Positions 10,422 through 63,552 of a DNA stretch of 64,000 nucleotides are shown piece by piece. The stretch is from Raillietiella orientalis. Its lineage: Eukaryota. The notes under the pieces were generated by a model. The model was not told the origin of the DNA. It did no database searches and saw nothing but the letters and a program-made list of their open reading frames with translations. Within the stretch, counting starts at the first letter, position 1, and each line of letters starts with the position of its first letter. The DNA lies in NCBI GenBank assembly GCA_036172245.1, contig JAYWIR010000033.1:1-64000 (forward strand). Direction: 5' to 3'. Made by a program: the position numbers and the translations under genes.

Positions 10422-11988
10422 GAGACGGCGGTCGGCCCGTTCCTGGAAGGCAAGTTTCACTTGCCAGAACGGGCCGCGGTTTGAAACGCCTTCGCATCCC
10501 CCATTCTCCGCCCCTTGCTTTTTGTTTGCTTCGCCCCCGTGAAATCGAAAGCGCGGACGAAGGACCTCCTCCGCATAGCCCTTTTGGGTAAGGGGAGGGG
10601 CCGAGTCCCTTTGAAGAACCTGTGCGCTCCGCGTCGGGACGGCGGTCTCAACATCCTGACGCTGGAGCGCGTGAAAATCCAGCTGCGATGGCGAACCCTC
10701 CTCATCGCATCGAAGCTGTGGAGCACCGCTTGGTGCATTTCGGCCCTCCTCCTGGCCAGGCGTGTGTCCCGCATTGAAGAACTCGCATCGTTCCTTTTGT
10801 GCCCTGGCCGGAAGTTTCGAAGATGCGGTCTACAGCTCGGCCTCATGGTAACCCTGGCAAAGGAGAATGACTGGATGGTTTGTGGCCCCGCCAACTCTTC
10901 CGCGTGACTGGAGGAGTCTGCTGGCATCTGCACCAAGCAGAACCAGAAGTGCGAACACCGGATGAACTGCCTGCGAGTCGGCATTTACGCCCGCCGTACT
11001 CTACGTTAAATTCTTGAATTTCCACCGAGTTGCAGGTGGGTGGAAGGCACATCCCTTGTTACGGCGATGCTTTTCTTCCAAAGGGCGCTTTACGAAAGCC
11101 AAGAGCCAAGGTGGCAAGTCTGCTGCCGTATCGCAGGCAGAGAGAAGATGAGGAGCAGCTGGACCATAGGAGAGTTGACAGATGCAACGACTCCTAGTAT
11201 CCAGCCGCGTGGATTAAGAAGATGGGGCGAGCTGCTCGGCATTCGATTGGATGATCTGAAGTGGCCCCTCGGTTCTACTTGGATCCAGGATTCTTGCCCT
11301 GAAGTGGCAAGAATCGGCGCTTCTGTGGCTGCATTGGGGTCTACCTTGCAACGCGCGCCGCTTCCGCTGGACGCGGGGAAGAGTAAATCCTGCGTGTGCA
11401 AGGTGTGGGGAGTGGGAGTCGCTCCCTCACTTCTTAGTTGAATGGCCTGCCGTCCGGATTCTTTGAGATCGTCTCAAAACGGCCCTTAGGATACCGGATG
11501 GTGACAACTTTGGATGTGTTTACAGTCTTGTCTTCGTGCGGGACGCCCTCAGTCCAGCCGCAGTTCTGGCAGCACTTTGCTGCATTCGTGGTATCGTGGC
11601 GGCCTGGAGTGATGCCGAAGATGAAGATTACATCCTGAGGGACGTCATCGAATATGCTGTTTGCTTTCTGCAGAGAGCTACCCGATGGCCACATCTGGGA
11701 AGAATGAAAATGGAACTAGAAGGCATCCTGCAAAGGATGGCCTCCCCCAGCAGTTTTCTGTGATCCCTTCCCGGCCCTCTAAACTCCTTTTGTTGTTTGT
11801 TTTTTTCTTTTTATTTTATTTTTGTTTTCTCTCCCATCCCCGTCTAATGCCGAGGTGAGCCACACCGGGCTGCTTCTTGGTGTCTTGGCAGTTCCGGTAT
11901 TGCGTGGCCGTCAGTGGGGCCTTGTACTAAGTTCTTTATTGACTGTAGAAATATTTTTAATAAACGTCCCAGCGTATCCGGCTGGCAT
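10422..11988 (+). mobile_element. E-like LINE: 3' part of ORF2 and 3' end
   Basis: GKFHLPERAAV, LCAPRRDGGL, TGATCCCTTCCC at 11761, AATAAA at 11959 plus degenerate hairpin. Confidence 0.9.
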
Positions 11989-13198
11989 CGCCTAAACCTG
12001 GAGGAAGAAGGTTCAGGAGAAACTGGTTGCAGAACTCGCGGACTGAGCTCTTCAAGTCGTCCCAGTCCGCAAGCGACTGCAGATGGAAGCCTTGCAGGAA
12101 CGACCGAAGAAGTTGCGCTGCTCCTGCGGGGCGCAACCGGTACCCTGCGAAACGTTACGCTCTGGAGGGTATGCCTCCACCGCGCGGGTGTATTTCTTGC
12201 ACGAGCCAGGGATAGTCGGAAAGTTCAAATGGCACTGCCCCACGATTTCCCACCCGCGAACACAGGTGGTTGTCGAGGAACATGTGGTCCATCCTCGTCT
12301 CCGTCCCGGCGTCACCGGCCAACTTGCGCGCGTGCATGGCAGCGCGCATCTCGTTGACCAGCTGTGCGCGAATGTCGGGCGCACCTGTGAGCAGGCGGAC
12401 GTTAAAGTCCCCGGCAATGAGGTGCGCCTTTCGCATCTCTGCTTCGACCAGCCAATCTCGCCGCAGGCCTTCGAAGAACGCAGTGCTTTCCCTGCGCCTG
12501 TGGCTCGTGCTGGGCGCGTACACGTTGGTCACAACGAGGTCGATCGCGTCGGACCACTTGGCAACAAGGTGCCCGATTTGACCTTCCCCGTCGAAGTTCA
12601 CGTCCCACAGCGCATTAACCACGGCTGGCTTGAGCATGAAATCCACACCGCGGGTGCTGTCTTTCCCGTTTTGGTATATGAGCCGCCCGCCTGCGATCCG
12701 TTCGATTTCCTTGGCCTCCTCTGCGTGGAGCACGTGCGTCTCCTGCAGAAGCGCCAGGACGAAGTCCCGCAGGCTGGCGGCCACTTCCCTCCTCTTGCCG
12801 TGGTCGCGCAACTTGTTGACGTTATAACAGATTACGCGCAGTAGCCGGCAGGAGGAGAGTCCACGCGTTGGTGTGTTTATGGTGTTTGCTTACCGTCCTC
12901 CGCCTGATGTCCAGCAGGCGGGAGTTGTGTGTCCATTGCGACGGGCTGTTTCTCGCAAGAGGGTTTTCGGTCGGTGGTTGTGGTGGTGGTTGGAAGATCC
13001 TACTTGGCCTGGACCGCTTCCGGCGAGGAGTCGCGAGACCTCGCGGACATCGCCTTTCCGTCGTCGTGGTCCGACCGCATTTCCTCCTCCGCCGGTTGGG
13101 GTGCGGAGCGCCGCGGGTTGCCTACCTTGCGGCCCGCTTTGCGCTTCGAATGAGCGACAGCCGAAGCGTTGCCAGATACGGCTTCGGACTCGGAAGTT
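11989..13198 (-). mobile_element. LINE lineage D, 5' half: ORF1 tail and APE, ending at the GFG site
   Basis: ORF 12155..12811 (LQETH, NVYAP, AGDFN); inverted near-copy of about 53715-54926. Confidence 0.92.
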
Positions 13199-15808
13199 AC
13201 CGAAGAGAAGGAACGCGCCAGATTGGATTGCCACTTCACGGCGGAAGAAGTATCTTCCGCAAAAGCGGGCCTAAAGAGGCATAAGGCGCCTGGGGAGGAT
13301 GGCCGGCCCACGGAGTTCTTTCAATGCTTCGCGGCGGAGCTCGTGCTTCTGGTGCAGAGCCTTTCCTCGCTGATGCGTGAGACGGAAGATGTTCCTGCTA
13401 CCTTCCGCTTAGCTAAAATGCGGCTCTAGCCGAAAAACGGGGATTTGCGTCACCTCAGCAACTGCCTTCTGATCACCTTGGTGAATTTGGACTAGAGCTG
13501 TTCTCGAGGCTATGGGTCGCGCGTCTAAGGAGAATCGCGGAGTCCTTGGTAAGTCCAAAGCAGACGTATACTGTTCCGGGGCGGTCCGTGAACGCAAATC
13601 TCTTCTTCGCGCGAACATGATTCGAGTTGCAGCAGCGCGTGGCGCAACAGAGGCAGGCAGCCGAAATCGCCGCTGCCAAATGTAAGCGGCGGTGTTCAAG
13701 GCACGATGGAAAGCCAAGAGCCATAGCGGTCGCCGTCGATCTCTGCAAAGCGGTCGACAGAGTAAACCAGACCTCCTTCTGGAGCTTCTAGGATGCCTAT
13801 TCCTTTCGATGCACCCCATCGCCTACTTGCACGTCTGCTAGCGCCATGCGTTATGCTGTAATTCTTTCAGGGGGCGCCACGTGTACGGCATTCCCATACG
13901 GCGGGGTATCACGCAGGGAGACAGCTCAAGCCCCTTGCACTTCAGCATCTTCTTTGAGTTGGTGCTGAGGGCGTACAGGCTGACGCCGGCCAACCTGTTG
14001 AGCTCCATCCCTGGAACACCGGTCGTGGCTGCCTATGCTGAGGTCTTTCTCCTGCTGCTGCCCTTGTCAACCCCGGCTTTCAGGCTTGAGGACTTTGAGC
14101 TCATTCGTCGGGGAGCGGGCCTGAGCGTCAACAGGACGAAGTCAACCGTTGTACCGGTTGGCTCTACATGGTAGGAGCAGTCGGACTGGATCCGCCTGGA
14201 AATCCCCACGGGCAGGTGCTTTAAGTACCTTGGCGTTCCCTTGGGCGCCTTCTGTCCTGCATAAGCGTGGTCGGACTGCCTTCACGAGGCCGCGACTGCT
14301 ATGGGCCCGTTCCAAGGCGGCAGGTTTCTTCTGTCGGAACGGGCCTCCGTGTGGAAAATTTTCGTTGCCCCCCTTCTCCGTCTGCTCTTTTTTGTTTGTC
14401 CCCCTCCCTACTCGGCTAAGCGCCGGGCGCAACGTGTGCTGCGGAACGCCCTGTGGGTACCGGAGAGGTCCAGGATACGCCTGAAAGACTTGGAGGCTCC
14501 TCGGCGGGATGCAGGATTGGGCATCCTGACGCAGGAATGGATCGGCCTGCTAGTGCAGTTCCGCATGCTGGCACTTTGTGCGCAGCTCTGGACTACTCCC
14601 TGGTGTGCTCCACCGCGGCTGCTGCTGCGGCGCTGCACGGTTGGCGACGGACTACGTTCGTTGCATCTGCGCACGGAGCGCGCCCAGGGAGGATTCGGCT
14701 TCCCTTTAAAGAAGCTCTCCTCGTTTCTAAGAATGCATGAGTGGATCTCCTGCCGGCCGACGAACTTCAACGCCTGGAGGCAGGATGATTTCTCGTCCTG
14801 GGCAGCGCAACAGGATGTGTTTCGTTTGGAACTCCGTTAGGTGAAACTTTCCCCATACTGTCTTGCTGGGGAGGTGCTAAAGACCAGAACCATTGGAAAC
14901 GCCTAGCCGCTACGTTACTCGCCGAAGCACTGTGTGCACTGATGGTGCGAGACGACAGTAACCTCCCTGCGCGTTGGGTGATTGCTTGCGAAATCTCAAG
15001 CGAAACCCGACTGCTGAGCGGCTGGCGGACTTGCGAAGTGGCAGACGCTGTTACACCTCGTATTCTTGCAAAGGGGCTTCTCCGGTGGAGTGAGCTCCTC
15101 GGGGTGCCCACCGATGAACTTGTGGTCTCTTCTGCGTGTTTGGACGCGACTCTCTTCCCCCTTGGGTGGAAACAGGACGCTTTTCTGCTGGTGCATTAAG
15201 GTTTGTACTGCAATCAGCGGGCGCACCTGATTTCCGGGGGAGATGCTTCCCCGAACTGTTCCAAATGCGTAGCCATGGAATCGCTTTCGCATTTGGTGTT
15301 TGAGTGCGGTGCCCTCTAGGAGCTGTGGCGGCGGCTGTCTTCAGCGCTCCTGCTCCCTGGACACACCGCACTGGATTGGATGCGCCGCTTCTACACGCGT
15401 GGCGGTCTTTCTCTTGGAACGGTCGTCGCAATCATCTGCTGCGTCCGCGCTATTGTCAGGACCCACCACGTATTGCAGATGCGAGCAGTCCCAACATCGG
15501 TCCCCGACACCGCAGCCTGCAACCTGCAAATGGCTGCCGGGTGGCCGCACCAGGGAGCAGAAGTGAGGGCGAAGATCGACGGCATTCACCGCCGGTTCTG
15601 AGAATAGGAACGGTCAGACTGCATACTTGTGTTTCCGCCTGCCCTCTTAATTTATTTATTTATTGTCCCACCACCTCCCGTTCCGAACTCTCAGTGTGCC
15701 CGGACTGCGTTCCGGGAAATCTACTCCCCATTTTCTGTTCCCCTTGCCTGGGAAAACAGTTCCCAGTTGATATTATGAATCAACGTCCCGGCGCAACCGG
15801 GTAATAAA
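13199..15808 (+). mobile_element. LINE lineage G, 3' half (RT to 3' end), decayed
   Basis: KAPGEDG, RRGITQGDSSSP, AAYAEV, terminal CCCGG-cgcaa-CCGGG hairpin; inverted near-copy of 49883-52480. Confidence 0.9.
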
Positions 15809-18633: not shown

Positions 18634-18730
18634 AATATACGTTTGGAGAAGCATTAAGGAATGAAGCGTACCTAAACAATCGTTCCCATTCCAGGACACC
18701 TGACGCAGGTCGCCTTGCTAAATATAAAAT
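18634..18730 (+). pseudogene. ORF2 linker fragment resuming at the GFG site
   Basis: Translates TFGEALRNEAYLNNRSHSRTPDAGRLAKYK, homologous to GFGGGLRNDRAY..SRTPDDRRLAEYK at 60578. Confidence 0.75.
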
Positions 18731-19640
18731 CGTTGAAGACAAAACCCACAAATAAAACACGAAAAACAAAGAAAACTAAGAGAGCGGTGTTCTTCGATGA
18801 GGGAAGGGAAGTGAACACTGCTCGCCACGGATGGTGTTCTGCATTAGGTTCAAGACGCAGTCAAGTACAGGTGCTAGAGTTTAAAACCAGTGTCATCGGG
18901 AGTTTCTCTCCATGGAATGGCATTCCGGATGTTGCAGACGATCATCAATGCAAGCCACTTGTCCAGGATTCCGCGCACGAAACAGAGAACTGCCATACAC
19001 GCGACTGCTGGCAAGGCGTCTTGGAGCAGGGAGCGACGCGGAATGTTCTTTCTATGGCCAACTGACAACGCCCGATTGCACATTGGAAGGAGGGTTGCAC
19101 ACTCGATTAGAAGGTACGGGAAGGAATTTTTCTTTCACCAGAGTCTGCACAACTGGCATTCACACGTTCGCGAGTCCAGTAAGAAAGGTGAGCTTTGCAA
19201 AGGAGTCCCAAATGCAACACAATCAACTCATTCTTTTGCCACTCTAAGGATAGAATGCAATTGTGCCTACGCTCTGAATACCACTTCACCTTACTTTGAA
19301 GGTATTGCGCGCAGCTCCTACCCAGCATGCCCAGTGCATGAGTCCCCCAGTTCGGATACTCGGAGTTGCAGAGTCTTCTTGTTACCGAGTTGTCCACGCC
19401 TTCAGGATTTTTTTTCTGCGTTTTATGTGGCAGCAAGCCTTCCACGAGAGCCTACTGTCCTCGCGGACCGTTACGCGCGCAGCTCAAAACTTGCTAAATA
19501 GCTATGCAACGAGAAAAAACGTAGAGTGTCTCTCATCCCGAATAGACCGTGTCCAATTTTGCAAGTTTACTCTGCACAGCGGGTTTCTTCATGCGGAGTA
19601 TCGATCCGGTAAGGTCGCCAAATATCGTTGTCCAAAGTGA
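18731..19640 (-). pseudogene. Heavily decayed ORF2 C-terminus and 3' UTR
   Basis: LEWQKNELIVLHLGLL..LSYWT..CADSGERKI; AVLCFVRGIL. Confidence 0.75.
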
Positions 19641-30400: not shown

Positions 30401-30666
30401 CTTCATTGGCGCCGTACTGTACAGTATATTGCAGCGAGCTGGAACTGATTCAAATAGGGAGACTGCTACGAATGCCGATTGCTTTTTATTGTATTTTCAA
30501 CATCGCCTCTTGCTGTGGACGATTTATCAGGCTGCCATATTTTCCTGTTTTGACATGCATATCATTCAGCGAGTAGCCTGATCTCTCCTTGCAGGTTCGG
30601 TGAATGGGAACCGTTGCATGAATTCAGCGGTTAAGACGTTTGGAGTAGGAGCGTAAAGCTCTACTG

Positions 30667-30698
30667 GGCCACACGGCAAAGCTCTTTGCCGTGTGGCC
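30667..30698. repeat. Perfect 15-bp inverted repeat
   Basis: GGCCACACGGCAAAG-ct-CTTTGCCGTGTGGCC. Confidence 0.95.
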
Positions 30699-36880: not shown

Positions 36881-36892
36881 AATCTTCGTGGA

Positions 36893-37868: not shown

Positions 37869-38375
37869 TCCACGTTTCGTTGCTCCTCTGGTTTAGTTTG
37901 GCTGCCCACCGCCTTCGTCTCGTATCAGTCATGTCGACTGAAGCACCAGGGGTGCCAACACTATCGCGTAGCACCGGAGGAACTCTGCGGGCAAGTCGTC
38001 CTTCCTTGGAGCTTTACGCCTCTTGAGCCTTTGGATACCCGAGAGGATTTCGACGGTGGTAAAAGCCTCGTCGAGACTTAAATTCTCCTCCTTTCCTATT
38101 ACTGAGGCATCATCCGGAAGCAAGCTCCGGGAGGCGTCTCGCTCCGGGGAGGCCCTGGTGTAGAGGGAGGAATAAAATCTCACGAGGTGTTGTATTCTAG
38201 CCGGGGCCGAGTGCTTCCGGCTCTGGTCGACCAGCAAGCTGGCCGACCTGGATTACCAAACTTTGCGCTCACCCCCGACGCGGTATTCGGCCAGACGACG
38301 GACGTTGGGGTCCTTACGTAATTACGGGCATACTAATACGCCCTTTCGTTGCGGACCCGCTGCCCAGATCCTGCC
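37869..38375 (-). pseudogene. E-like ORF2 linker resuming at the GFG site, deleted to a short C-terminal piece
   Basis: RTPNVRRLAEYR, FYSSLY, KRRKAP, then AKLNQRSNETW. Confidence 0.85.
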
Positions 38376-41530: not shown

Positions 41531-41549
41531 CGCGCGCCTGGAGCAGGAG

Positions 41550-44500: not shown

Positions 44501-44604
44501 ATAATGATGTTAAGTGGGTATGTTGTATGAATGTGATTATCTAATCAATGTGTTTTCAAAAATAGAAAATAAATTCACCCCACCCTTTGTGGGACTTAGT
44601 GAAA
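41550..44604 (+). mobile_element. LINE lineage A: decayed ORF2 and 3' end (second copy)
   Basis: Direct homologue of 1-2857; RGVRQGDSLTP, YADD; AATAAA at 44568 plus CCCCAC-ccttt-GTGGGA. Confidence 0.92.
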
Positions 44605-45923: not shown

Positions 45924-46682
45924 GCGAGAACACGTCTGTACTGGGCGAGCGCATGAGATGGAATGCATATCTGGAGTGCGTCTATCGTATCCGTGGGGAA
46001 CATCGAGAAGTTGTTATGTCGCCTACCTACTTCGGCCAGCCGTCGAGGCCGCGGCGCGTAGCGTACGGTTCGCAATCACGGTCGTATCGGCCACCTGACT
46101 CTCATCTGGTGCGACTATATCGACCTGATCGTCGCGAACGTGCACGCATCAACCCGCGAGGACCTGGCGAATAGGTGGGCGAGGAAAGAAATTTTCCTCG
46201 CCCTCCGGCACGACTGGCTGACCAAGAAGGGCGTGCGTAATGTCCATCTGGTTGGAGGCAATTTTAAGGTTCGCCTAAACCAGATGGGAAAAATCACGAG
46301 CGGAAAATGGTCAAAGCGGTGCGCACGGCAGTGCACACCTGTAATTTGTTGGCCAGTAAACCGCGGATAGAGGACAGCATCGATTACGTGTTCCTTGATC
46401 AGCACCCTTGCACTCGTGTGGGCAGGCGCAGTGAGTTACTGTCCGAGTTGTCCGACCATCGCCCGAACGTGCTCCAGGTTCATGCTCGCGACAGGAACTC
46501 CTGCTCGTTAGCGTGGCGTTTGCCAGGACACTGGCTGAAGCTCCTGGAAGCGGCGAAACATCTCCGCACGTTCATAGGGAGCTTCAGGCTGCGCACACTC
46601 CAGGATTGGGACCGCTTCAAACGGTCCGTCCAGGAGCTCTGCTACCAGTTCCCTTTAGCTTGCATACCAGAGGTATTAGAGG
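45924..46682 (+). pseudogene. APE fragment from the ETH motif to the GFG-equivalent site
   Basis: DYVF, SDH, WRLP, FPLACIPEVLEV, the same length as FPLYRLPPGFGV. Confidence 0.85.
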
Positions 46683-48729
46683 TTTCCACCCGGGTATGAC
46701 CGTGGCGTTTATTGAAAAAATAAAACTCCACAAGACGTGGTACGAGGCCTTACTGACGGCCTAACACCGAACCTGCCGGGACGCAGCCCACCTTGACTCT
46801 CCTCGGCAGTGGAGGAAGATGTGTGAGAAAACAAAAAATAAAATAAAAACAAAGAAAAAACAAAGAGAGTTTGAAGGGAGGGGAAGGGATCACATTCCAC
46901 TGGAAGGAGTGTCCAACCTTCCCAGGATTCCCTCGAGGTCCATCAGCATTGAACCCAGCTGGGGCCATCCTGTAGCTCTCCGCATGCAGCAGACCGCATA
47001 CGGGATGACATTCCTCTTGATCTCGTCAAATCGTCCGTCGCGTGCATCGCTCCAGGCCGCCACGATGCCTCGGATGCAGCATGCGTCTCTGGGTTGGCTG
47101 CCCACCGGGAGCCCGAGGGTCGTCCCGAACCGTTCCCATAGGGTTCGGAGGGCTGCACAGTCAACAAGTAGGTATGGGAGCGATTCCCGCTCCCCACACT
47201 TTGCATATTCAGGCCATTACACTACCCGCGTCCAGTGGAAGCGCCGCGCGTTGAAGGGTAAGTCCCAGGGCAACAGTAGCTGCGCCGATTCTTGCCACTT
47301 CAGGGGGAGGAGCCTGGATCCGATGAGAACTGGAAGCCACTTCAGGTCATCCGTCGGGATGCCGAGCACCTCGGCCCATCTCAGAATTCCACGCAAGAGG
47401 GCACTCGGGGTCGTGGCGTCTGCCAGTTCTCCCATGGTCCAACCGCTCCTTTTCTTCTCTCTGCCTGCTATACAGCAGGAGACTTGCCATTTCGGCTTCT
47501 GGCCGCTGGTTAGGGCCCTCCGTGGAGAGGACAGCGTCGAAGCTAATGGAGTGGTCTTGCCCACGTGCTCCTCGCGGGACACTCCAGAGTGTACTGCTGT
47601 GTGCAGCAGGCGTTGGGTACGAATCGCAGGCGGTTCTAGGTTTTTTTCTCTGCTGTTGTTTAAATTCGCCCAGGTTCCAACGGTTTCCTCCAGCCAGGCG
47701 GAGCAGTTCGCGGGGCTGCATACTATTCTACCGTTTTCTCTCACCAGGGCTTCCATGCGTCCGAGAAGGTTGCTTCTTCTTAACTTTCCGCCGCGGCACA
47801 AAAGATACGACGCAAGCCCTTGCGTCCTGGAAAGACGGCTGGCGAGGAGGAGGGACGAAACGCAACAAGGGGTGCTCCACAACTGCGCTGCGATGGCGAG
47901 AAGGCGCACTCGCAGCTGGATCTCCAAGCGCTCCAGTGTCACGAGTTCAAGACCGCCGTCCCGACGCGCAGCACATAAATCTTTCAGAGGCACACGAGGC
48001 CTCCCGCTGCCTTAGAGTGCTAAGCGAACGAGGTCCTTAGACCTCTTCTTCAACTGGGAGGGGACGGGGCAAACAAAAAGCAAGGTGCGGAGGATGAGGT
48101 CCGAGAACGCGTTCAAAACCGCGGCCCGTTACGGCAGAAGAAACTTGCCTTCCAGGAACGGGCCGATTGCCAACTACCCTTCCGGGAGACTACCTGACCA
48201 GGATTCTGCGAGACAGAAGTCCCCCAACAGGACACCCAGGTACTTCAGGCACCTGGCCGTGGGGATCCCCAAGAGGATCCAGTCAGACCGTCTACCAACG
48301 TCGCACCCACCGCTATCACTAATGACTTCGGCTTGTTTACCTGGAGTCCAGTCGCACGGCTTAGCAGATCGAAGAAATCCTCTACTGCGGCTGCCGGAGC
48401 AGACATGTGCAAAATCAGCAGAAGATCGTCGGCGTATGCAGCTACAGCGAGCGTGCCGGGGCATGAGCTGGGCAAGGCAGCCAAAGTCACTCTGTACGCT
48501 CTCAGCACCTACTCAAAGTAGGTGCTAAAAAGCCGAGGACTAAGGCTATCGCATCGCCGTATGCTTCGCCATACCGGCACGCCGTACGGCTATTTGTTTA
48601 CTGGAAGAAACGTTCATTAACGCATTCCGCCAGCAAGAGCGCAGGAAAGAGTGTAAAAACGGTGGAAAGCCCATGCGACCCAGAAGCTCCAAAAGAAGCT
48701 CCTGGTCCACGCAGTCGCTCGCCTTATGC
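46683..48729 (-). mobile_element. LINE lineage Cx: ORF2 from HKAxDCVDQ to 3' end
   Basis: YADDLL, LCAARRDGGL, LKWQESA; terminal motif at 46683-46713. Confidence 0.9.
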
Positions 48730-52584: not shown

Positions 52585-52672
52585 GGCGGACGCAATTGTT
52601 GCGCGCTCCTTGAATGGGGAGTTTTTATTTTCTGGTGTTTCGTGTGTGTTTCGCGGCCGTTGACAGGCAGAA

Positions 52673-54035
52673 ATGCCTGTTAACGCCGCAGTTTCAGGTG
52701 AGGGAGGCGGGAAGACCGCGTCTCCCAAGCCAAAGGAGGTGGGATCACGCCCCACCACTTCTTCTGAACCCGCCACTACGGCGAGGGCCTGGAGCGCGGT
52801 GGCAGCGGGGGAAACGCCCGATGTCGCCGCCGAAATCCAATCCTACATCCAGGAGGGCTACAATCCGGCCCTCCTGTACAAGGTAGGCAATTTATATTTC
52901 CCGTTAAGGGCGAGAAAGTTCGGCAATGCCATCAAAAAGATGGGCATTGCCGACCATGAAATTCTTTGCCTCTCTATACGGAGCGGAGGGCAGTTGGCGG
53001 AGCTCATCTGCAAGGATGCAGCTCTCACCCACAAGATGCTCTGCACGTTCGTACAATTTGAGGGCAGGAATTTACTATCACACACGGTGGACCACTCCAT
53101 TGTGGTCCACCTAACAGGGACAACAGTGCGGATGGATGAGAACGCCATCCGCGCTGAACTGGAAAAATGTGCAAGCGTTTTCGCGATTTGGAGAAAGCCC
53201 AACACCTTCGGAGTGAGCGGTGCATTTAGTGGGCGAGTAGGCGCGCGCGTGACGTTTCGAGAAAGCGTACAGCTTCCCCACAAGCTCCAAATTGGCGACC
53301 AGTTGGTCCACATTTGGTTTGTGGGGAAACCTAAATTCTGTGGAAACTGTAAGTCGTTCGGGCATTTGAAAAAGCGGTGCCCGGACGCGGTTTGCCCAAC
53401 GTGCGGCGCGAAGGGCCACACCAAAGTGATGTGCCCGATGAACGTCGCGCCACGTCCAACAATCAAAGCGTGCAGCGTGGCCATCAAACGCGTGCCGGCG
53501 ATCGATACTCGCTCCGCTGACGGATCGATGCGACGTGACGTCACGTCAGCTGTTCAAGCCGCCGCCGCGCGAACGCCGACGCCGCGACGCCTGCGTGAGC
53601 AGCGACGACCGGGACTTCAACAAGGCGGCGGAAGAGTTGGCAGCCATGCTCCAGCAGCCTCCCAAGGCCCAGAAGAAGGCCTTGAGGTGTCCGGCTGAGG
53701 CGAAAGGACCGGAGACTTCCGAGTCCGAAGCCGAAGCCGGCAAGGCTCCGGCTGTCGCTCTCCCGAAGCGCAAAGCGGGCCGCAAGGTAGGCAACCCGCG
53801 GCGCTCCGCACATCCACCGGCGGAGGAGGAAATGCGGTCGGACCACGACGACGGGGAGGCGATGTCCGCGAGGTCTCGCGACTCCTCGCCGGAGACGTCG
53901 CTGGCCAAGCAGGAGCCTCCAACCACCACCACAACCACCGACGGACCGCCTCCTTGAGAGCAACAGCCCGTCGCAATGGATACACAACTCCCGCCTGCTA
54001 AACAGCAGGCGGAGGACGGTAAGCAAGCACAATAA
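52673..54035 (+). pseudogene. D ORF1, gag-like with two CCHC knuckles (one frameshift, one premature stop)
   Basis: CGNCKSFGHLKKRC, CPTCGAKGHTKVMC; frame change near 53530; TGA at 53955; likely true stop TAA at 54033. Confidence 0.88.
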
Positions 54036-54916
54036 ACACACCAACGCGTGGACTCTCCTCCTGCCGGCGACTGCGCGTAATCTGTTGGAACGTCAACGGG
54101 TTGCGCGACGACGGCAAGAGGAGTGAAGTGGCCGCCAGCCTGCGGGACTTCGACCTGGCGCTTCTGCAGGAGACGCACGTTCTCCACGCAGGGGAGGCCC
54201 AGGAAATCGAACGGATCGCAGGCGGGCGGCTCGTATACCAAAACGGGAGAGACCACACCCGCGGTGTGGCTTTCATGCTGAAGCCAGCCGTCGTTAATGC
54301 GTTGCGCGACGTGCACTTCGACGGGGAAGGACAAATCGGGCAGCTTGGTGCCAAGTGGTCCGACGCGATCGACCTCGTCGTGACCAACGTGTACGCGCCC
54401 GGCACGAGCCACAGGCGCGGGGAACGCACTGCGTTCTTCGAAGGCCTGCGGCGAGATTGGCTGTCCGAAGCAGACATGCGAAAGGCGCACCTCATTGCCG
54501 GGGACTTTAACGTCCGCCTGCTGGCAGGTGCGCCCGACATTCGCGCACAGCTGGTCAACGAGATGTGCGCTGCCAGGCACGCGCGCAACTTGTTGGCCGG
54601 TGACGCCGGGACGGAGACGAGGATCGACCACATGTTCCTCGACAACCACCTGTGTTCGCGGGTGGGAAATCGAGGGGCAGTGCCATCCGAACTTTCCGAC
54701 CATCCCCGGCTGGCGCTAGAAATACACCCGCGCGGTAGAGGTCCACCCTCCACAGCGTGGAGTTTGCCAGGGGACTGGTTGCGCCTCGAAAAAACAGCGC
54801 AACATCTTCGCTCGTTACTGCAAGGCTTCCATCTGCAGACGCTCGCGGACTGATACGACTTGAAGAGCTCAGTCCGCGAGTTCCGCGACCAGTTTCCCCT
54901 GTACCGTCTCCCTCCA

Positions 54917-54926
54917 GGTTTCGGCG
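54917..54926 (+). repeat. Candidate target-site duplication of E (partner at 60578-60587)
   Basis: GGTTTCGGCG on both flanks of E. Confidence 0.75.
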
Positions 54927-54957
54927 TTGCCACCCGGGTACGCCCGGGGCGTTTATT
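54927..54957 (-). terminator. Element 3' terminus: AATAAA followed by GC hairpin (best-preserved example)
   Basis: Reverse complement reads AATAAACGCCCCGGGCGTACCCGGGTGGCAA; 6-bp stem; function inferred. Confidence 0.6.
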
Positions 54958-55131
54958 GATAAACTTTACATGCGTGGTACAAGGCCCCACCACGGCCGTA
55001 AACACAGGACCTGTCGGGACACCGGGACGCAGCCCGGCGTGGCACTCCCCGACAGAGAAGGGGGATGGGGATGAGACAAAAAGTAAAATAAAAAGAAACA
55101 AACAAAAAGAAGTTGGAGGGCAGGGAAGGGA

Positions 55132-58100
55132 TCACTGGTCGCTGTGGGGAGGGCCCATCCGTCGAACGAAGCCCTCGAGGTCAGCCTGCATATTCCCCAG
55201 TTGGGGCCATCCGGCAGCTCTTCGCAAGAAGCGTTTGGCATACGGGATGACATCCCTCGCCTGTGGACCCACTCCTTCGTTGTTGGCGTCGCTCCATGCC
55301 CCCACGATGCCACGGACGCAGCACAAGGCTGCGATGGCTGCGGCTGGCTGCAGTGCGTCCTTCACGAAGAGGGGCCGAAGAACGTCTCTGGGGGTGCTGC
55401 CTGTAGGGAGACCGAGGGTCGTCCCGAACCGTTCCCAAAGGGGTCGGAGGGCAGCACAATCCACAATAAGGTGGGGAAGCGACTCCCGCTCCCCGCACCT
55501 GGCACACGCAGGATCCACAGCTCCCCTCGTCCAGTGGAAGCGGCGCGCGTTGCAGGGTAGACCCCAGTGCAACAAAAGCAACGCCGACTCTTGCCACTTG
55601 AGGGGCAGGATCCTGGATTCCTTCATCACCGGGGGCCCCTTCAGCTCATCCCTGGGGATGGCGAGCAGCTCGCCCCATCTTAATAATCCTCGCGGCTGGA
55701 CGCTCGGGGTCGAGGCGTCGGCCAGTTCTCCTGTTGTCCAGCCGCTGATCAACTTCTCCCGTCCCTCGATGCAGCAGGAGACTTGCCACCTTGGCGTCCG
55801 GGTAATGTGAAGTGCCCTCCTTAGGAAGGGTAGCGCCGTAGCTAGGCAGGTCGTCTCTGCCCACGTGCATCTTGCTGAACTCTCCAAGAGATTCCGCAGC
55901 GTGCAGCGGGCGTAGGGGCTGCATCGGAGACGATTCCACGTTTCGTGGCTTCTCTGGTTGACTACTGCCCACGTTCCAATATTCTCCTCCAGCCAGGCGG
56001 GGGAGTTGGCGGGGCAGCAAACCATCCAGCTGTTCTCCTTGGCCAATGTTGCCATGCGCCCGAGCAGTGGGCCGCATCTTCGCATCTTCCGGCCACGGCT
56101 CAGAAGAAAAGACGCGAGTCCATCGCACCGGGACACACGGCTGGCCAGGAGGCGGGCCGGAGTGCACCAAGGGGTGCTCCACATCTTCGCTGCGATGGCG
56201 AGGGTTCGCCACCGCAGCTGCTTTTCCACGCGCTCCAGCGTCAGGAGGCCAAGACCGCCGTCCCGACACGGAGCGCACAAGTCCTTCAGTGGGACTCGGG
56301 GCCTCCCCTTGCCCCAAAGGGCGATACGGAGGAGGTCCTTCGTCCTCTTCTTGGATTCCACGGTGGGGGGGCAAACAAAAAGCAAGGGGCGGAGGATGGG
56401 GCCGCGAAGGCGTTCCAAACCGCGGCCCGTTCCGGCAAGTGAAACTTGCCTTCCAGGAACGGGCCGATCGCCGTCTCGACTTTTTGGAGGCAGCTGGACC
56501 ACGCTTCCGCAGGGGAGTAGTCCCCCAACGGCACACCAAGGTACTTGAAGCACCTCGCCGTGGGGATCCCCAGACGGACTCAGTCCTGCTGCCCTGCCCA
56601 CGCCGCACCTATTGGCACAACCGACGACTTCGCCCTGTTAACCTGCAGTCCGGTCCCGCGGCTGAGCAGATCGAAGAAGTCTCCGACCGCCTTTGCCGGG
56701 GTGGACATTGGCAACAAAAGCAGAAGATCGTCGGCGTACGCTGCTACGGCGGGCGTGCCGGGGCACGAGCTCGGCAATGGGGCCAAAGTCACCCTGTACG
56801 CTCTAAGCACCAACTCAAAGTAGGTGCTGAAGAGCAGGGGGCTGAGGCTATCTCCCTGCCTTATGCCCCGCCGCACCGGCACGCCATACACCTTTTGACC
56901 GCTGAAAGAGACGGTAATTATCGCATTCCGCCAGCAAGAGCGCAGGTAGGAAATCAGGGAGGGTGGAAAGCCCATGCGACACAGGAGCTCCAAGAGAAGT
57001 TCCTGGTCTACACAGTCGAACGCCTTGTGGAGATCGACTGCGAGCGCTAGGGCCCCCTTCCCCGCCCGGGGGTCCCTTCCCAGCCCGGCTGGCGGCCTTA
57101 ATGTGGGGTTGCCGACTTTCCCTATCCCTTTCTTCTCTCTTCTCTGCAGGTGCACCCACGTGCTTGCGAAGAAGAGGTTGGCATCCATACTTCGCCCGGG
57201 AACAGCATAAGTCTGCTCCGGGCTAATTACGGATTCTGCCACCTGCCCCAGACGCGAAACCCATAGTTCTGCTATCAACTTGGCGTCCGTATTCACGATC
57301 GTGATCGGACGCCAGTTCTTTAAATCCCTGAGGTCTCCTCCTTTCGGCAGGAGCCTCACTCTGGCTGACCGAAACGAGGCGGGAACATCGCCTTCGTCTC
57401 GGATCAGCCTGATCAACTTAAGCAGCAGGGGTGCCAGCTCTTCCGCGAAGCTCTGAAAGAACTCCGCGGGCAAGGCGTCTTCCCCTGGAGCTTTACGCCT
57501 CTTGAGCCTTTTGATACCGGCGAGAATTTCGCCGGTGGTAAAAGGCTCGTCGAGGCTTTCCATCTCCTCCTCCCCTATTGCCGGGGCGCCATCCGGAAGC
57601 AAGCGCCGAGAGGCGTTTCGATCCGGGGGCTCCCTGGCGTAAAGGGAGGAATAGAAACTCCGCACGAGATGCCGTACCGCCGCCGGGGACGAACATTCCC
57701 GGCCCTGGTCGTCCAGCAAGCTGGCCGACCCGGATTGCCAGGCTTGGCGTTCGGCCCCGGCGCGGTACTCGGCCAGGCGACGGACATTAGGGGTTCTCTC
57801 GTACCTACGAGCCTGTAAATAGGCCCGATGGTTGCGAGCACCCTCGCCGAATCCGGGGGGCAGGCGATCCAAGGGGAACTGCTCACAGAACTCGCGGACC
57901 GATTCCTTAAAAAGGTCCCAGTCCTGGAGATTCCGGAGCGTGACACCTCTCAGGTATTCGCGAAGGTATTCCTTGGCACCTGAGAGTCGCGTCCAGTCCC
58001 CCGGCAGACGCCAATCCCTGGATGGCGGTCCCTTGTCACGAGGCCGCATCTCGAAATTTAACCGGGAATGGTCCGACAACGTCGACGCAACCCTCCCCCG

Positions 58101-58730
58101 TTTGCCGACCCGTGAACACAGGTCAGCGTCGAGGAAGACGTGTTCGATGCTGCGGACCATTCCCCTCTCACCCGCGAACAAGTTGCGCGCACGCATGGCG
58201 GCGCACAACTCGTTCATCGCGTTCTCTTGTGTTTCTGGCTCACCTGTTAGCAGACGGAGATTGAAATCTCCCGCTATCAGGTGAGCCTTCCGCACGTTCG
58301 TGTCCGCCAGCCAGTCGCGCTTCAGGGAATCCAGCAGCCTGGTATGGTCGCTGTATCCCTGTTTACCGCTGGGGGCGTACACATTCGTGACGATCAATTC
58401 GATCGAGTCGGACCAGCTGAGAATCAGCTGACCGACCCGACCGTCGTCATCGAAGCGCACGCCCTTCACGGCCGCGTCGATGGCCGGCTTCACGAAGAAC
58501 GCGACCCCGCAGGTGTTGCGGAGGCCGCACCGCCAATACAGCCGACCCCCTGCGATCGTCTCGATCTCCTGGGCGTCTGCCGCGGTGATCACGTGGATCT
58601 CCTGCAGCAGGGCCAGGTCGAGCTCACGCAGGGTGTCGGCCGTATCTCGCCTGTTACCGTCGTCGCGCAGTCCGTTGACGTTCCAACAGGCGGCGCGAAT
58701 CCGACGGCGACTGGCGAGCCCAGGTGTTAT
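55132..58730 (-). pseudogene. E ORF2: APE endonuclease and reverse transcriptase (about 1200 codons; one stop at 56580, one frameshift near 56400)
   Basis: CWNVNGL, LQEIH, NVYAP, AGDFN, SDH, KAPGED, WRPI, DLHKAFD, RQGDSLSP, YADD, KYLG, CARCGERESLPHLIVDC. Confidence 0.95.
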
Positions 58731-60481
58731 TCCTGGGAAGATGGCGATGCGGCGTCCGCCACCTGCTGGGGCGGGACGCTAGGCGGAGGAGGAGGGTCAG
58801 GCGCTGCGTGCACCTGGTCCCCCTCCTCCATGGGTAACGGCGCGTCGAGGGGGTCACCCTTGAGTGGGGTCGCGCCTACCTGTTGGCCCTCCTCCATGGG
58901 GGCGGGCTGTTCAGGCTCGGCGACTGCAGGGAGGACTTCGCCCCCCTGCTCACCCTCCTCCATGGGGCTCGCCGGCTCGACGGCTTCCGAGCGTGGGAGT
59001 TCCCCCTCCGGGACTCCCACGCCACCGCTACCTTCCTGCTTCTCCTCCTCGCTGGTGGAGGGGAGGCGCCTCCTGGGTTTCTGGGACTTGCGTCCCGACT
59101 TCCTGGGGGGTGCCTCCGAGGAGGAGGATGCACTTCCGGCCCCCAGGTCCGACGCACCTGTGGGGGCCTTTTTCGCGGGAGCCGGCCTTCGCACGGCCTT
59201 GCGTGAGGGGTTCTCACGCTCCGCCAGCGTGGCCGCGAGCTCCTCCGCCGCCTTTGCGAACGCGGCGTCCGCAGTGTCGACCGGCGCGTCGCGCGGCTCA
59301 CCCTCTGTGTAAACAGAGGGTTCGTCGTCGCGAACCTCGGGCGCGGCGGAAACGGCGAGGGAAGGCTCGTCGCCCCGGGTGGCAATCTCGGGAACGGCTA
59401 TGCGCTCCAGTGCTACCGTACACTCCCGCATGGTCTTAGAGCGCGGCCCAGGTTTTTTCGCCTTGCCGGCTGTCTTTTTTACCGCTTTTGCGGGTTCCGC
59501 GGGGGGCACCTTTTTCTCCTTCCTGGCCTTGACCAGCTGCCAGCCGTCTTGGACTCCCGCGTCTTCGGAGGGTTTTTCTTCCGACGCCTGTGTGGGAGGA
59601 ACAGGGGCTAGCGGCTGCTGCCGGGCAGTATCTCTTTTTGGTCTTTCGACCAGTTTACTGCGTTTTGCCTGTGCTTTTTTTGCAGCAGGCGGCACCGGAG
59701 TGGGGCGTTTAGGGCATACGCGGCGTACGTGGCCCTTCTCCCCGCATAAGTGGCACACAATGTTCGGGCACCGCTTGCGCAAGTGTCCTACTGCATTGCA
59801 GTAGCCACAAAAGCGGGGTTTCCCCACGTACCAGAGGTCTTCGACTTCGCCATTGACCTCTAGTTTGTGGGGAAGCCCACTCTCGTTCACCGTCACGCGC
59901 GCGGCGGCCTGCCCTCCGAAAAGGCTATCGTAGCCATCGAAGATTGTGGCCTTTGGCCGAAGCGCGTGAACATCCCCGTACTTTCTTAACTGATCACCAA
60001 CCGCAGACCGCGTCATGCGACTGGTGATCCCTGTCAGATGGACCACTACGGAGCGGTCCATCGTGACTGGTAGGATCTTGCGTCCGTCCACGTTCAGCGG
60101 GGTGGTTATCAAGCTTTGCGCCAAGGTGATGTCCTTGCAGACAACCTCAACGCGCTGACCCCCGCTTAGCACGGATAGACCGTCAAGGTCCTTTTCTAAC
60201 ACGTTGGCGTTCTGCAGCGCTTTCGAAAAAGCGCGTGCAGTTCGCCCGTCAAAGAGATTGCCTACCTGGTAAACCAAGCTGGGCTTGTACCCAGCTGCCC
60301 GGTAGGCCGCCATCTCGGCCATCGTTTCCGCGCTCGGCGCGGCCACCATGGCGCTCCAGCTCCTCGCCTTGAGCGGCGAGGGCGATTCCGGGGCGGACGC
60401 CCCTGATTCTGTAGGCTGTGGGGGTGGGCAAGCCTCCCCCACACCTACCTCCATCGTGGGGTCCTCAGGCATCGCTGCCAT
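58727..60481 (-). CDS. E ORF1: gag-like nucleic-acid-binding protein with two CCHC knuckles and an acidic/Pro-rich tail
   Basis: Uninterrupted frame; CGYCNAVGHLRKRC and CHLCGEKGHVRRVC; ATG at 60481 or 60472. Confidence 0.92.
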   Translation of the reverse strand: MAAMPEDPTMEVGVGEACPPPQPTESGASAPESPSPLKARSWSAMVAAPSAETMAEMAAYRAAGYKPSLVYQVGNLFDGRTARAFSKALQNANVLEKDLDGLSVLSGGQRVEVVCKDITLAQSLITTPLNVDGRKILPVTMDRSVVVHLTGITSRMTRSAVGDQLRKYGDVHALRPKATIFDGYDSLFGGQAAARVTVNESGLPHKLEVNGEVEDLWYVGKPRFCGYCNAVGHLRKRCPNIVCHLCGEKGHVRRVCPKRPTPVPPAAKKAQAKRSKLVERPKRDTARQQPLAPVPPTQASEEKPSEDAGVQDGWQLVKARKEKKVPPAEPAKAVKKTAGKAKKPGPRSKTMRECTVALERIAVPEIATRGDEPSLAVSAAPEVRDDEPSVYTEGEPRDAPVDTADAAFAKAAEELAATLAERENPSRKAVRRPAPAKKAPTGASDLGAGSASSSSEAPPRKSGRKSQKPRRRLPSTSEEEKQEGSGGVGVPEGELPRSEAVEPASPMEEGEQGGEVLPAVAEPEQPAPMEEGQQVGATPLKGDPLDAPLPMEEGDQVHAAPDPPPPPSVPPQQVADAASPSSQE

Positions 60482-60573
60482 CGGACACCAACGATGTTCC
60501 ACACTAAACAACACAACAAAAAACCGCTTCCTGTCGACTCACTCGGGAGCGAAGGAAACACACGTCCACTCGC

Positions 60574-63552
60574 CAAGGGTTTCGGCGGAGGGCTGAGGAA
60601 CGACCGGGCATACCACCACGCCCGTCTTTACTCTAGGACTCCCGACGATCGACGCCTGGCGGAGTATAAAGCTGGGGCTGAGCGACAGACCTGGCATTCC
60701 GGGTCGCCCAGCCTGCTGGACGCCCAAGGCCAAGCTCCGGCGAGAATAAACCGCATCCTGCGGGACTATTACTCCTCCTTGTACGCGCGTGGAACAACGG
60801 AGCGCGCCGTGGCGCAGCGCTTGCTGCCGCAAGGCGCCCCCGCGCTGCAGGAGGAGCAGGCACATGAACTCACGGAGCCTTTCTCGATGGCGGAGACTGT
60901 CTCCGCCATCGGAAAGCACCGAAAGAGAAAAGCACCAGGGGAAGACGGTCTGCCAGCGAAGTTCTACCAAGGCTTCGTGGCGGAGCTGGCCCCCCTGGTG
61001 CATCGGCTATGCATGCTGATCCGAGAACAAGGGGACGTCCCAAAATCGTTCCGGTCAGCTAGAGTACGTCTCCTGCCGAAAGGAGGAGACAATCGCAACG
61101 TAGGCAACTGGCGTCCCATCACAGTAGTGAATGCGGATGCGAAGTTGCTTGCCAAGCTTTGCGCTGAGCGACTGAAACGGGTGGCGGAATCCGTGGTGAG
61201 TCCGGAGCAGACATACGCTGTTCCCGGACGAAGCATGGAGGCCAACCTGTTCCTTGCCAGTACATGGTGGCAGTTGCAACAAAGCGAAGACCAGGGAAAT
61301 CAAGAGAATCCTGGATTCTCCTCTGACCAGGGAGGGGACGCCCTTCATGGAAGAGCCGCGCCCGGTGCCCTTGCGGTCGCAGTCGATCTGCGTAAAGCGT
61401 TCGATTGCGTCGACCAGGAACTGCTTCTGGAGCTCCTGGAACGCTTGGGATTCCCGGCCGTCTTCCGGGCTTACCTGCGCTCCTGCTGGCGCTTCGCTCT
61501 AATCAACATCTCTTTTAGCGGCCGGCACGTTTTCGGCGTGCCGGTTTGGCGTGGCATAAGGCAGGGTGACAGTCTGAGCCCCTTGCTCTTCAGCATCTAC
61601 TTGGAGCTGGTGCTGAGGGCATACAGGGAGACTCTGGCAACCCTGCCAAGCTCGTGTGCCGGCACGCCTGCCGTGTCGGCCTACGCCGACGACCTTCTGC
61701 TCCTGCTCCCCGGGTCCACCCCGGCGTCGGCGCTCGAAGATTTCTTTGAGTTGCTGCGCCGCGGGACGGGCCTCGAGGTGAACAGAGAGAAATGTTCCAT
61801 CGTTACAACATCACCACAACTATTCAACCATGCGGCGTGGGCCGGACGGCCGGACTGGATCCGCTTGGGGATCCCCACGGGCAGGTGCTTGAAGTACATT
61901 GGCGTTCCGTTGGGGGACTTCTGCGTTGCAGAAGCCTGGTCCGACCGTCTCCAAAAGGTGGAGTTGGCGATCGGCCCGTTCCGGAACAGCAAGTTTTACT
62001 TGCAGGAGCGGGCCGCGGTGTGGAACGCGTTCGCGGCCCCCCTCCTTCGCCCCTTACTTTTTGTTTGCCCCGCCCCTCCCATCATACAGAGACGGACCAA
62101 AGCCCTCTTGAGGACTGCCCTTTGGGGCACAGCGAGGTCGCGAGTCCGATTGAAAGACTTGTGCGCTCCACGCAGGTATGGTGGCTTGGGCCTCCTTACG
62201 TTGGAGCGCATCCAACTTCAAACAAGAATTCGAAAGTTAGCCCTTGCGGCTAGCTTATGGATGACGCCATTGTGCGATCCGGCACGGCTCCTCTCCAGAA
62301 GAGCGACCGGCTGCGAAGGATTGTCCTCGATCCTCGTGGCCTACCAGCGCAGCCTCTCCAACTGTGGCTTGGATTTGCGCCAGATGGTCGCCCTGATGAG
62401 GGAGAATACCTGGATCTCCTGCATCCCCGCGAACTGCACTGCCTGGCTTCAGGAGTCAGCTTCCGCGTGGGCTAAGATCAACGGAACGAGCGAGGCGGAA
62501 TACAACTGCCTACGACGAGGACCGTACGCTCGACAGCCGCTGCAGGATATTATCAACACGCCCCGGAAGTTTCTGTGGGCTTCTTTCAGCCCCCTTGCCC
62601 CGTTCTGTCCTCCCTGAAAAACAGTAGGAGCAGCAACGAGCTGGCATCGTGGGAAGTGTCCTGCCTCATCCGAGGCAGGAAAAAACCTTTAATGGCGTGG
62701 ACGACTCGTGAGCTCACTAACGCTGCCACTCCGAGCGTCCCGCCTCACGGACTTGCGCGCTGGGGAGAGCTGCTCGCAATACCTCCGGAGGAGGTGAAGT
62801 GGCCCCCAGCGTGTTGGGATTGCGCCACACTCCCGTTGAAGTGGCAGGAGACGGCGTTGCTATTTCTGCACTGGGGACTGTTAAGCAGAGCACGCCTGTC
62901 TCACTGGACACTGGGAAATGTGGATGCCCGTTGTGTCGAGTGCGGAGAAAGAGAAACCTTCCCGCATCTCACCCTCGAGTGTGTCGCTCTGGATGGACTC
63001 TGGATTCGAATCTCCCCAATCCTCCATCTTCCAGTAGGCGACCCTAAGGAAATTTACCGTCGCCTCTTTCTGCGTGACGGCCTGCGCCCCGCCGCGTCTC
63101 CTGCAGTCCTCTGCTGCGTGCGCGGCATTGTGCAAAGGTGGCACGCCAGAAGAAGAGGCCCAAGATGCAGGGACGCCATCCACTGGACGACGATCTCTTT
63201 AGAGACGGCGACAAGGTGGCGTCTACCTTTCACAATAAAAACAGAACTTGACTGCATCCTGAACAGGATGCGGAGGACCGACCCAGGCGCTCAGTGATCC
63301 CTTCCCGGCCCCCCCCCTCTCCCCATACAACTGTTTCCCTCCCCGTTATCTCTCTTTTTGTTTGTTTTTGTACTAGTTTTCCCTTCCTATGCACCTCGGG
63401 AATGGACCTAACCGGTCTATGCACCGGCAACAGACACGTCAACCAAGGTGGGAAAACCAAGTGTTTCCCACAATTAATTTTTGAAAGACTTTATTATGTA
63501 ATTTTTGTAAAAAATTAGAATAATAAATGCCCCGGCATATCCGGGTGGCAAA
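60574..63552 (+). mobile_element. LINE lineage D, 3' half (linker, RT, C-terminus, 3' end)
   Basis: Resumes GFGGGLRNDRAY; RQGDSLSP, YADD; one frameshift near 62600; stop at 63297; AATAAA at 63522 plus CCCGG-catat-CCGGG. Confidence 0.95.

Follow-up and report, generated by a model that had tools for sequence, protein, structure and literature searches.

Structure of the window and of element E

The window analyzed here is a 64-kb stretch of the genome of Raillietiella orientalis (contig JAYWIR010000033.1), and the subject of this work is element E, a long interspersed nuclear element (LINE), together with its relatives that lie at one codon position in the second open reading frame (ORF2) of other LINEs. 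Nearly the whole window is composed of fragments and full copies of non-LTR (long terminal repeat) retrotransposons and is GC-rich (55–64%). Pfam matches to zf-CCHC in ORF1 and to Exo_endo_phos and RVT_1 in ORF2 were found among its ORFs. It is a nest made up of LINEs only, namely L1-like non-LTR retrotransposons whose ORF1 has a CCHC motif and whose ORF2 encodes an APE endonuclease and a reverse transcriptase (RT). Genes of other kinds were not found, scanning of the window with Rfam gave 0 matches, and one trivial 37-mer was the only tandem repeat found in it.

Element E (5652 nt; defined by Pfam matches, translations and directly read ends) is a full-length member of what is here called the E clade (Table 1). 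Its ORF1 is open, while ORF2 carries two lesions: (i) an in-frame stop codon (56580-56582) at a position occupied by Trp in the host LINE H_E and in the related protein P0003, and (ii) a 1-nt frameshift near 56397. Contigs of a public sequencing run (X1) covering E are 95–99% identical to it and have at 56397 an additional G, by which the frame would be restored at that point. Because E has only these two ORF2 lesions and such closely similar contigs carry the extra G, we read it as a recently dead member of a multicopy family. One of the three listed sequencing runs contains the stretch, in contigs of about 300–600 nt; none of these spans a junction and no joints were reported, so that the assembly at the junctions is neither confirmed nor questioned by them.

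In the E ORF2 protein the Exo_endo_phos domain covers residues 32-237 and RVT_1 was also matched. The best relative of solved structure is human L1 ORF2p (E-value 3e-51, two matching stretches), with R2 reaching only 1.6e-14. Several features by which APE-type members of the L1 superfamily are recognized were found: an APE domain followed by RT in ORF2, zf-CCHC in ORF1, a 9-bp target-site duplication and a 5'-truncated copy (I1). Close protein relatives in the library search are P0003 (71% identity) and P0016 (a 132-residue fragment, 71%), the next hits being about 30–40% identical; P0013 turned out to be a distant tandem-RT protein. The L1 clade sensu stricto typically has a 3' poly(A) tail, but no A-run was found at any of the 10 aligned 3' ends. 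All ten have AATAAA, followed by a CCGG...CCGGG hairpin and G(G)NAAAC; compensatory changes were seen in 0 of 6 hairpin pairs, and the conservation is one of sequence, with no covariation support for structure. The E clade is best read as an L1-like, poly(A)-less, sequence-specific LINE lineage.

Five insertions at one codon position of ORF2

According to the first-pass annotation, a single codon position in the APE-RT linker of the host ORF2, at the Gly-Phe-Gly (GFG) codons, is hit six times. All six junctions exist, 1–6 nt from where they had been placed and at the same position of the host frame, and the linker label is fair, as GFG lies about 70 residues past the APE domain and ahead of the RT domain. 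The number of events is only five, however, since E supplies two of the junctions: (i) E into H_E, (ii) I1 into H_E', (iii) I2 into A-rt, (iv) I38376 into h38353, and (v) I18633 into h18633. Read in host-sense orientation, a 3' junction has the form host ...G-F-G followed by the reverse complement of the insert 3' end, and a 5' junction that of the reverse complement of the insert 5' end followed by G-F-G... of the host. The insert is antisense to its host at 6/6 junctions.

The most completely preserved event is that of E in H_E, a full-length LINE of another lineage, itself lying antisense in an element Y. Both copies of the 9-bp target-site duplication consist of the GFG codons of H_E, and ORF2 of H_E resumes in frame beyond E at 60578, giving a 736-codon open frame. 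The protein context of the site is ...QFPLYRLPP-GFG-GGLRNDRAY..., and the pre-integration site of H_E is read as CTCCCTCCA GGTTTCGGC GGAGGGCTG. The 3' end of E, without poly(A), is ...AATAAACGCCCCGGGCGTACCCGGGTGGCAAC, with the last bases GGCAAC; the 3' terminus in the E clade has the form ...CCCGGGTGGCAAC. An inverted repeat, CCCTCC(A)...(G)GGAGGG (54908-54916 and 60587-60592), surrounds the 9 bp in H_E, with C/NGGAGGG at both inferred nicks; as a single case it is offered as a lead only.

In A-rt the codons of the site are decayed, and its place was found by counting 12 codons from the conserved Q-F-P-L, the same number as in the other hosts. The short host piece h18633 aligns to residues 310-339 of E ORF2, starting at the F of GFG (E-value 2e-07). 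Elements E, I38376 and I18633 have a common 5' terminal motif (GAGYGGAYG ... GGCAGCGATGCCTGA) and are therefore regarded as full-length at this end. Insert I1 is 5'-truncated and joined (10420/10421) to the host at a point about 330 bp on the downstream side of GFG, which corresponds to a host deletion of about 330 bp; target-primed insertions with 5' truncation usually look like this.

Table 1. Features of the LINE nest (window coordinates; a slash marks a junction; junction sequences in host-sense orientation)
Feature	Position	Strand	Description
Element E	54926..60577	-	Full-length E-clade LINE
E ORF1	60538..58727	-	CCHC knuckle; first ATG 60481
E ORF2	58778..55132	-	APE and RT
Target-site duplication, upstream copy	54917..54925	+	GGTTTCGGC; G-F-G codons of H_E ORF2
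Target-site duplication, downstream copy	60578..60586	+	GGTTTCGGC; 9/9 identical to upstream copy
Host H_E	52585..63553	+	Full-length LINE split by E
H_E ORF1	52667-53831	+
H_E ORF2, N-terminal part	54005-54925	+
H_E ORF2, remainder	60578-63270	+
I1	10421..11989	+	E-clade insert; 3' end adjoins GFG site of H_E'
H_E'	11990..13197	-	Upstream part of I1 host; ends in GGTTTAGGC (11998..11990); 91% identical to H_E
I2	46682..48728	-	E-clade insert, ORF2 residue 584 to 3' end; adjoins GFG position of A-rt; interrupted by element X
A-rt	45944..46681	+	I2 host; ORF2 from about residue 66 to GFG position (46673-46681, decayed to GTATTAGAG)
I38376	38372..40214	+	E-clade 5' end and ORF1, 70.7% identical to E; full-length 5' terminus adjoins GFG site of h38353
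h38353	37871..38371	-	Downstream part of host, begins GGATCTGGG (38371..38363); E-like, 77.8% identical to E
I18633	18247..18638	-	5' terminus and ORF1 start; E-type 5' motif; probably E clade
h18633	18639..18740	+	Short decayed host piece, begins ACGTTTGGA (T-F-G)
3' junction of E	54925/54926	+ (host H_E)	GGTTTCGGC/GTTGCCACCC
3' junction of I1	11990/11989	- (host H_E')	GGTTTAGGC/GATGCCAGCC
3' junction of I2	46681/46682	+ (host A-rt)	GTATTAGAG/GTTTCCACCC
5' junction of E	60577/60578	+ (host H_E)	...CTCGCCAAG/GGTTTCGGC
5' junction of I38376	38372/38371	- (host h38353)	...CTCGCGGCA/GGATCTGGG
5' junction of I18633	18638/18639	+ (host h18633)	...CTCAATAT/ACGTTTGGA
Empty site in E	57846-57854	-	GGATTCGGC
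Empty site in A-left	4921-4929	+	GGTTTTGGG; A-left (4216-5178) is a look-alike of A-rt
Empty site in Y'	7594-7602	+	GGCTTCGGG; paralog of 63722-63730
Empty site in Y	63722-63730	-	GGCTTGGGG; reads G-L-G
Empty site in c41610	41588-41596	-	GGCTTCATA; decayed Y-like copy
Empty site in another decayed Y-like copy	36192-36200	+	GGCTCCGGG
X 5' end in I2	48728-48738		At AVD/LHKAFD
X' 5' end in I2'	16986-16995		At AVD/LHKAFD
K1 3' end in c41610	40780/40781		At AVD/LHKAFD
Y and Y' 3' ends	49882 and 15809		One place in X-type ORF1
H_E in Y	52584/52585 and 63553/63554		Between ...SAAAE and VYR... of Y-type ORF2; no target-site duplication
H_E' in Y'	7771		At ...SAAAE/VYR of Y-type ORF2; no duplication
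W 5' ends in A	~4215 and ~45943		About residue 66 of A-type ORF2
Z 3' ends	2858 and ~44605		In W-type ORF1

Lineage specificity and proposed mechanism

The last 250 nt of the 14 recognizable 3' ends were compared. E, I1 and I2 cluster together by their tails, with 70–74% mutual identity and at most 61% identity to any other tail. All three E-clade 3' ends lie at GFG, versus 0/11 of the others (H_E, H_E', Y, Y', K1, Z, Z' and the ends at 18246, 19627, 33357 and 37870), and both assignable E-clade 5' ends in the window are also at this site. The reading that we favor, with a probability of roughly 0.8, is recurrent, lineage-specific homing of the E clade (E, I1, I2, I38376 and probably I18633) to the GFG codons in ORF2 of related LINEs. 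A LINE counts as target-specific when its independent copies share one insertion nucleotide and one orientation within a repeated target, and this is the pattern presented by the five events.

A mechanism can be proposed from what is established on target-primed reverse transcription and on target-specific LINEs of the APE type. We infer that the E-clade endonuclease reads the target sequence: the APE endonuclease of the element would recognize ORF2 of a sibling LINE and nick its sense strand right after GFG, following ...GGT TTC GGC. The 3' OH freed at the nick would then prime reverse transcription from the 3' end of the element RNA, which is proposed to lack poly(A) and to end in the conserved short hairpin and GGCAAC. 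Cutting of the opposite strand 9 bp upstream would produce the 9-bp duplication, and 5' truncation with target deletion, as in I1, would represent the usual failure mode. Since the coding motif presumed to be the target is conserved in the superfamily, the victim of each insertion would be another LINE copy and not a host gene, which would allow the elements to pile up as Russian-doll nests.

The position might instead be set mainly by RNA-DNA pairing and not by recognition of the DNA by protein: the tail of a read-through transcript would carry downstream target sequence (GCCGAAACC...) of the preceding insertion site, anneal to the next host at its nicked GFG site and so fix the junction. For R1 and R2, which are specific to 28S rDNA, such a tail has been described as fixing the junction by annealing to the nicked target. 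Such pairing would agree with the poly(A)-less elements ending at a precise nucleotide (3/3), and every donor copy necessarily lies within a GFG site, so that read-through would supply matching sequence. Yet the 3' end of the element (GGCAAC) has no visible microhomology to the primer strand (TTCGGC), and a site-specific first nick would be needed anyway; we consider pairing as the determinant of position unlikely.

Independence of the insertions

The left and right parts of the window are partly collinear (7324-17907, inverted, with 47815-64000; 465-4902 with 42213-46654), and the junction at 11989 consequently lies in a block collinear with that of the E 3' junction. Could a single ancestral GFG insertion have been spread by segmental duplication, the junctions being copies of one event? 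Four collinear pairs speak for this: (i) 7324-10426 and the reverse complement of 60899-64000 (90% identity), (ii) 10421-13197 and the reverse complement of 53715-56478, (iii) 13198-17907 and the reverse complement of 47815-52486, and (iv) 465-4902 and 42213-46654. Moreover, H_E differs from H_E', and Y from Y', to nearly the same extent at all codon positions, as expected of neutral decay; codon-position counts were set aside as a test of selection, being ambiguous, as GC-rich third positions can decay faster.

Global pairwise identities were calculated and maximum likelihood (ML) trees built for hosts and inserts separately. The hosts H_E and H_E' are 91.1% identical, H_E and A-rt 58.9%, A-left and A-rt 80.5%, and H_E and h38353 60.6%. 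The identities of the inserts are 73.6% for E/I1 and for E/I2, 70.1% for I1/I2, and 70.7% for E/I38376. Insert divergence is thus 26% (E/I1) against 9% between the corresponding hosts (H_E/H_E'), and the patristic distances in the ML trees are 0.37 for E-I1 and 0.097 for H_E-H_E'. In the collinear alignment the identity is 83–94% in the host block (11990-13197 vs. 54925-53715) and 65–86% in the insert block (10421-11989 vs. 56478-54926), and the drop falls exactly on the junction. The host tree contains the pairs (H_E, H_E') and (A-left, A-rt), each with 100% support, and the insert tree the grouping (E, (I1, I2)) (Shimodaira-Hasegawa-like approximate likelihood ratio test, 89), with the hosts of I1 and I2 in different clades. 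Host h38353 is closest to E itself, not to H_E. The hosts hit represent at least three lineages, i.e., the H_E type (two hosts), the A type (one) and the E type (h38353), with the fifth host unassignable.

Congruent host and insert trees with equal divergence, which the first-pass annotation had named as the signature of one duplicated insertion, were therefore not what the separate trees and distances gave, and its proposal of a recurrent site rather than random nesting is supported by their disagreement. Further points stand against duplication: (i) the GFG site is empty in A-left and filled in the look-alike A-rt; (ii) the target-site duplication of E is perfect and its ORFs are nearly intact, while I1, the supposed duplicate of E, is decayed; and (iii) the ratio of right to left terminal branches flips between adjacent blocks, which one duplication cannot produce. 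For the RT segment the right/left branches are 0.0037/0.12 in Y, 0.022/0.093 in H_E and 0.23/0.16 in I2; for ORF1 of X they are 0.11/0.047, plus 0.12 common with a third copy. A single insertion followed by duplication is largely refuted by these data and appears very improbable. Because the host and insert distances and trees are incongruent, the sequences argue for repeated hits at GFG, namely at least four and most likely five independent insertions at the same nucleotide. In an element of 5652 nt, the chance that four further events coincide with the first in nucleotide and orientation is about (1/11304)^4, i.e., approximately 6e-17.

That GFG is merely a fragile or recombination-prone spot of ORF2, or one where insertions preferentially survive, is hardly credible: the nest does contain 3' ends at non-recurrent places (18246, 33357 and 37870), but the junctions are precise to the nucleotide on both sides, the 9-bp stagger and the orientation do not vary, and only one insert lineage is involved (3/3 vs. 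0/11), all of which contradicts it.

Occupied and empty sites

Empty sites had been listed by the first-pass annotation in E, at 4921, at 7594 and near 63720. All four are real, but those at 7594 and 63730 are paralogous (the blocks are about 90% identical), which had been missed, and two more, in the decayed Y-like copies at 41588-41596 and 36192-36200, had not been noticed.

Several observations weigh against recurrent homing of the E clade to GFG. The site region is present in 11 ORF2 copies of the window; five of these have an insert at the site, and the other six (E, A-left, Y, Y', c41610 and the 36192 copy) are empty, as is the site in 4/4 Y-like copies (...LPR-GFG-EGVANS, CGC GGC TTC GGG). 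The site of E itself, one synonymous change off the target, is unoccupied, as is an identical 9-mer at 14691, outside the ORF2 linker; the 9-mer alone would therefore be insufficient as a target, and recognition would have to reach further. Both junctions and the undecayed pre-integration sequence are kept in one event only, that of E, and at 18639 the host piece is only about 100 nt long and the insert lineage not resolvable. All the evidence comes from a single 64-kb window. A metagenome scan with the ORF2 alignment yielded one distant locus (L001, 29% identity) without junction information, and in a search with the ORF spanning the 3' junction (54854-55810) 0 of 2807 candidates scored.

The wider nest and other recurrent sites

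The right half of the window (45.9–64 kb) is a five-deep nest, A-rt(+)[I2(-)[X(+)[Y(-)[H_E(+)[E(-)]]]]]. Its inverted left counterpart is I2'[X'[Y'[H_E'[I1]]]], and A[W[Z]] is present twice. The identity between left and right blocks changes in steps at the element boundaries (I2 about 74%, X 78%, Y about 90%, H_E about 90%, E/I1 74%). The Z copies are 84–95% identical in the ORF (89% as an overall figure) and 66–79% in the 3' untranslated region. Inserts I2 and I2' form with E an unresolved trichotomy: the three pairings that can be drawn are backed by 10, 9 and 6 shared derived states. Both large "deletions" in the left copy span exactly a 5' junction.

Given the stepped block identities, the flipped branch ratios and the position of the left-copy "deletions" on 5' junctions, the two look-alike nests seem best explained by independent, parallel assembly through lineage-specific homing; stepwise duplications combined with gene conversion would account for them less well. 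In a broader form, to which we assign about even odds, several diverged lineages would each home, antisense, to their own site in another lineage, and five-deep nests would have been assembled repeatedly and independently. The sites may then be (i) GFG for the E clade, (ii) AVD/LHKAFD for the X type, (iii) X-type ORF1 for the Y type, (iv) SAAAE/VYR for the H_E type, (v) A-type ORF2 at about residue 66 for the W type, and (vi) W-type ORF1 for the Z type. The three 3' ends at non-recurrent places, named above, speak against a site for every lineage, and not all lineages need therefore be specific.

A second recurrent position was observed in the RT motif ...AVD/LHKAFD (at about E residues 580-584), where three junctions fall; K1 is unrelated to X, and its host c41610 is an unrelated Y-like copy. 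All 18 orientable insert/host pairs are antisense (about 13 if look-alikes are counted once), including those of the non-recurrent 3' ends at 18246 and 37870. Overall, the window holds two look-alike nest pairs with block-specific identities of 74–97%. A 355-nt piece of X-type ORF1 (5121-5475, plus strand) is 93.8% identical to X' (16304-16658, minus strand) and is inverted, where the downstream half of X' would be expected; it is probably a local rearrangement.

The younger, GC-rich elements flank on both sides an AT-richer core (18–38 kb, 40–48% GC), which holds only strongly decayed LINE fragments and, at 23–33 kb, stretches without recognizable homology. An inverted repeat is present within it (26091-26592 vs. 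30522-31052, 72.5%). A Pfam scan of 51 ORFs from the 18–38 kb core gave two sub-threshold chance hits and no genes.

Comparison with known LINEs

Target-specific LINEs with an APE endonuclease include R1Bm in 28S rDNA, TRAS and SART in telomeric repeats, and Tx1L, which inserts into the DNA transposon Tx1D. The APE-type target-specific groups are the Tx1 and R1 clades, and the published target list includes transposons (PMC4640811, in the part available); the R1Bm endonuclease is described, in the available part of the source, as specifically cutting both target strands (PMC1919474). Like these LINEs, the E clade combines APE and RT with insertion at one defined nucleotide of a multicopy sequence, in fixed orientation and with a short target-site duplication. 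It differs in that its target is a conserved coding motif in ORF2 of the same superfamily, the E clade itself included, and in its antisense orientation. The likeness is one of insertion behavior, the best solved relative being human L1 ORF2p.

The LINE R2, which occupies a strict single site in 28S rDNA, encodes a restriction-like endonuclease, lacks poly(A) and has a structured 3' end for recognition by its RT. The E clade resembles it in strict single-site insertion, the lack of poly(A) and the form of the 3' end. R2 differs in its type of endonuclease and in having a single ORF, and E scores far better against L1 ORF2p than against R2 (E-values above).

Zepp and ZeppL of green algae form LINE-only clusters by nested insertion that targets existing copies (PMC8226300, PMC3446292). 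The available portions of the sources describe the Zepp clusters as one per chromosome in Coccomyxa (PMC3446292) and as tandem arrays of mostly 3' ends (PMC8226300), and ZeppL as a single family forming the putative centromeres of Chlamydomonas (PMC9940879). The window resembles these L1-clade clusters of Chlorella, Coccomyxa and Chlamydomonas in being GC-rich and LINE-only, in the nesting into existing copies and in the two ORFs with a Gag-like ORF1; a neighbor cluster in the protein atlas is mostly chlorophyte, a weak hint in the same direction. As far as these portions go, it differs from the tandem 3'-end arrays of Zepp in nesting that is antisense (18/18), at a defined codon and with full-length copies (E and H_E), and from the single ZeppL family of Chlamydomonas in containing several diverged lineages. 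The E clade is set apart from Zepp by the descriptions of Zepp in later papers, in their accessible parts.

Cnl1 of Cryptococcus likewise accumulates among its own copies. According to the accessible part of the report, it forms subtelomeric arrays of these copies, prefers G+C-rich sequence, has variable or absent target-site duplications and also inserts into genes (bioRxiv 10.1101/2021.08.11.455996); a single coding-site target is not described for Cnl1 there. In searches of the open-access literature, at the level of titles and abstracts, no description was found of a LINE that has a defined codon in ORF2 of other LINEs as its target, nor, in the parts of the papers available, of strict antisense nesting or of several lineages with different sites.

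Biological meaning

Target-specific LINEs and self-nesting clusters are already known; the new feature, judged from the sequences, would be the use of the GFG codons in ORF2 of sibling LINEs as the target. The known LINE targets are rDNA, telomeres, snRNA and tRNA genes, microsatellites and a DNA transposon. If a lineage has its safe haven in a conserved ORF2 coding motif of its own superfamily, this would represent a new target class. It would offer a concrete mechanism by which nested islands of LINEs alone, for example the Zepp-like clusters in green algae, could grow without damage to genes. It would also be a case of transposon-versus-transposon conflict, in which each insertion inactivates a sibling ORF2, and from which the target codons would be expected to be under selection. 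With a defined site and a cut staggered by 9 bp, a compact APE endonuclease may furthermore serve as a model of how APE-type endonucleases gain specificity. If each lineage indeed has one site of its own, a chain of LINEs parasitizing LINEs would build LINE-only, possibly centromere-like islands.

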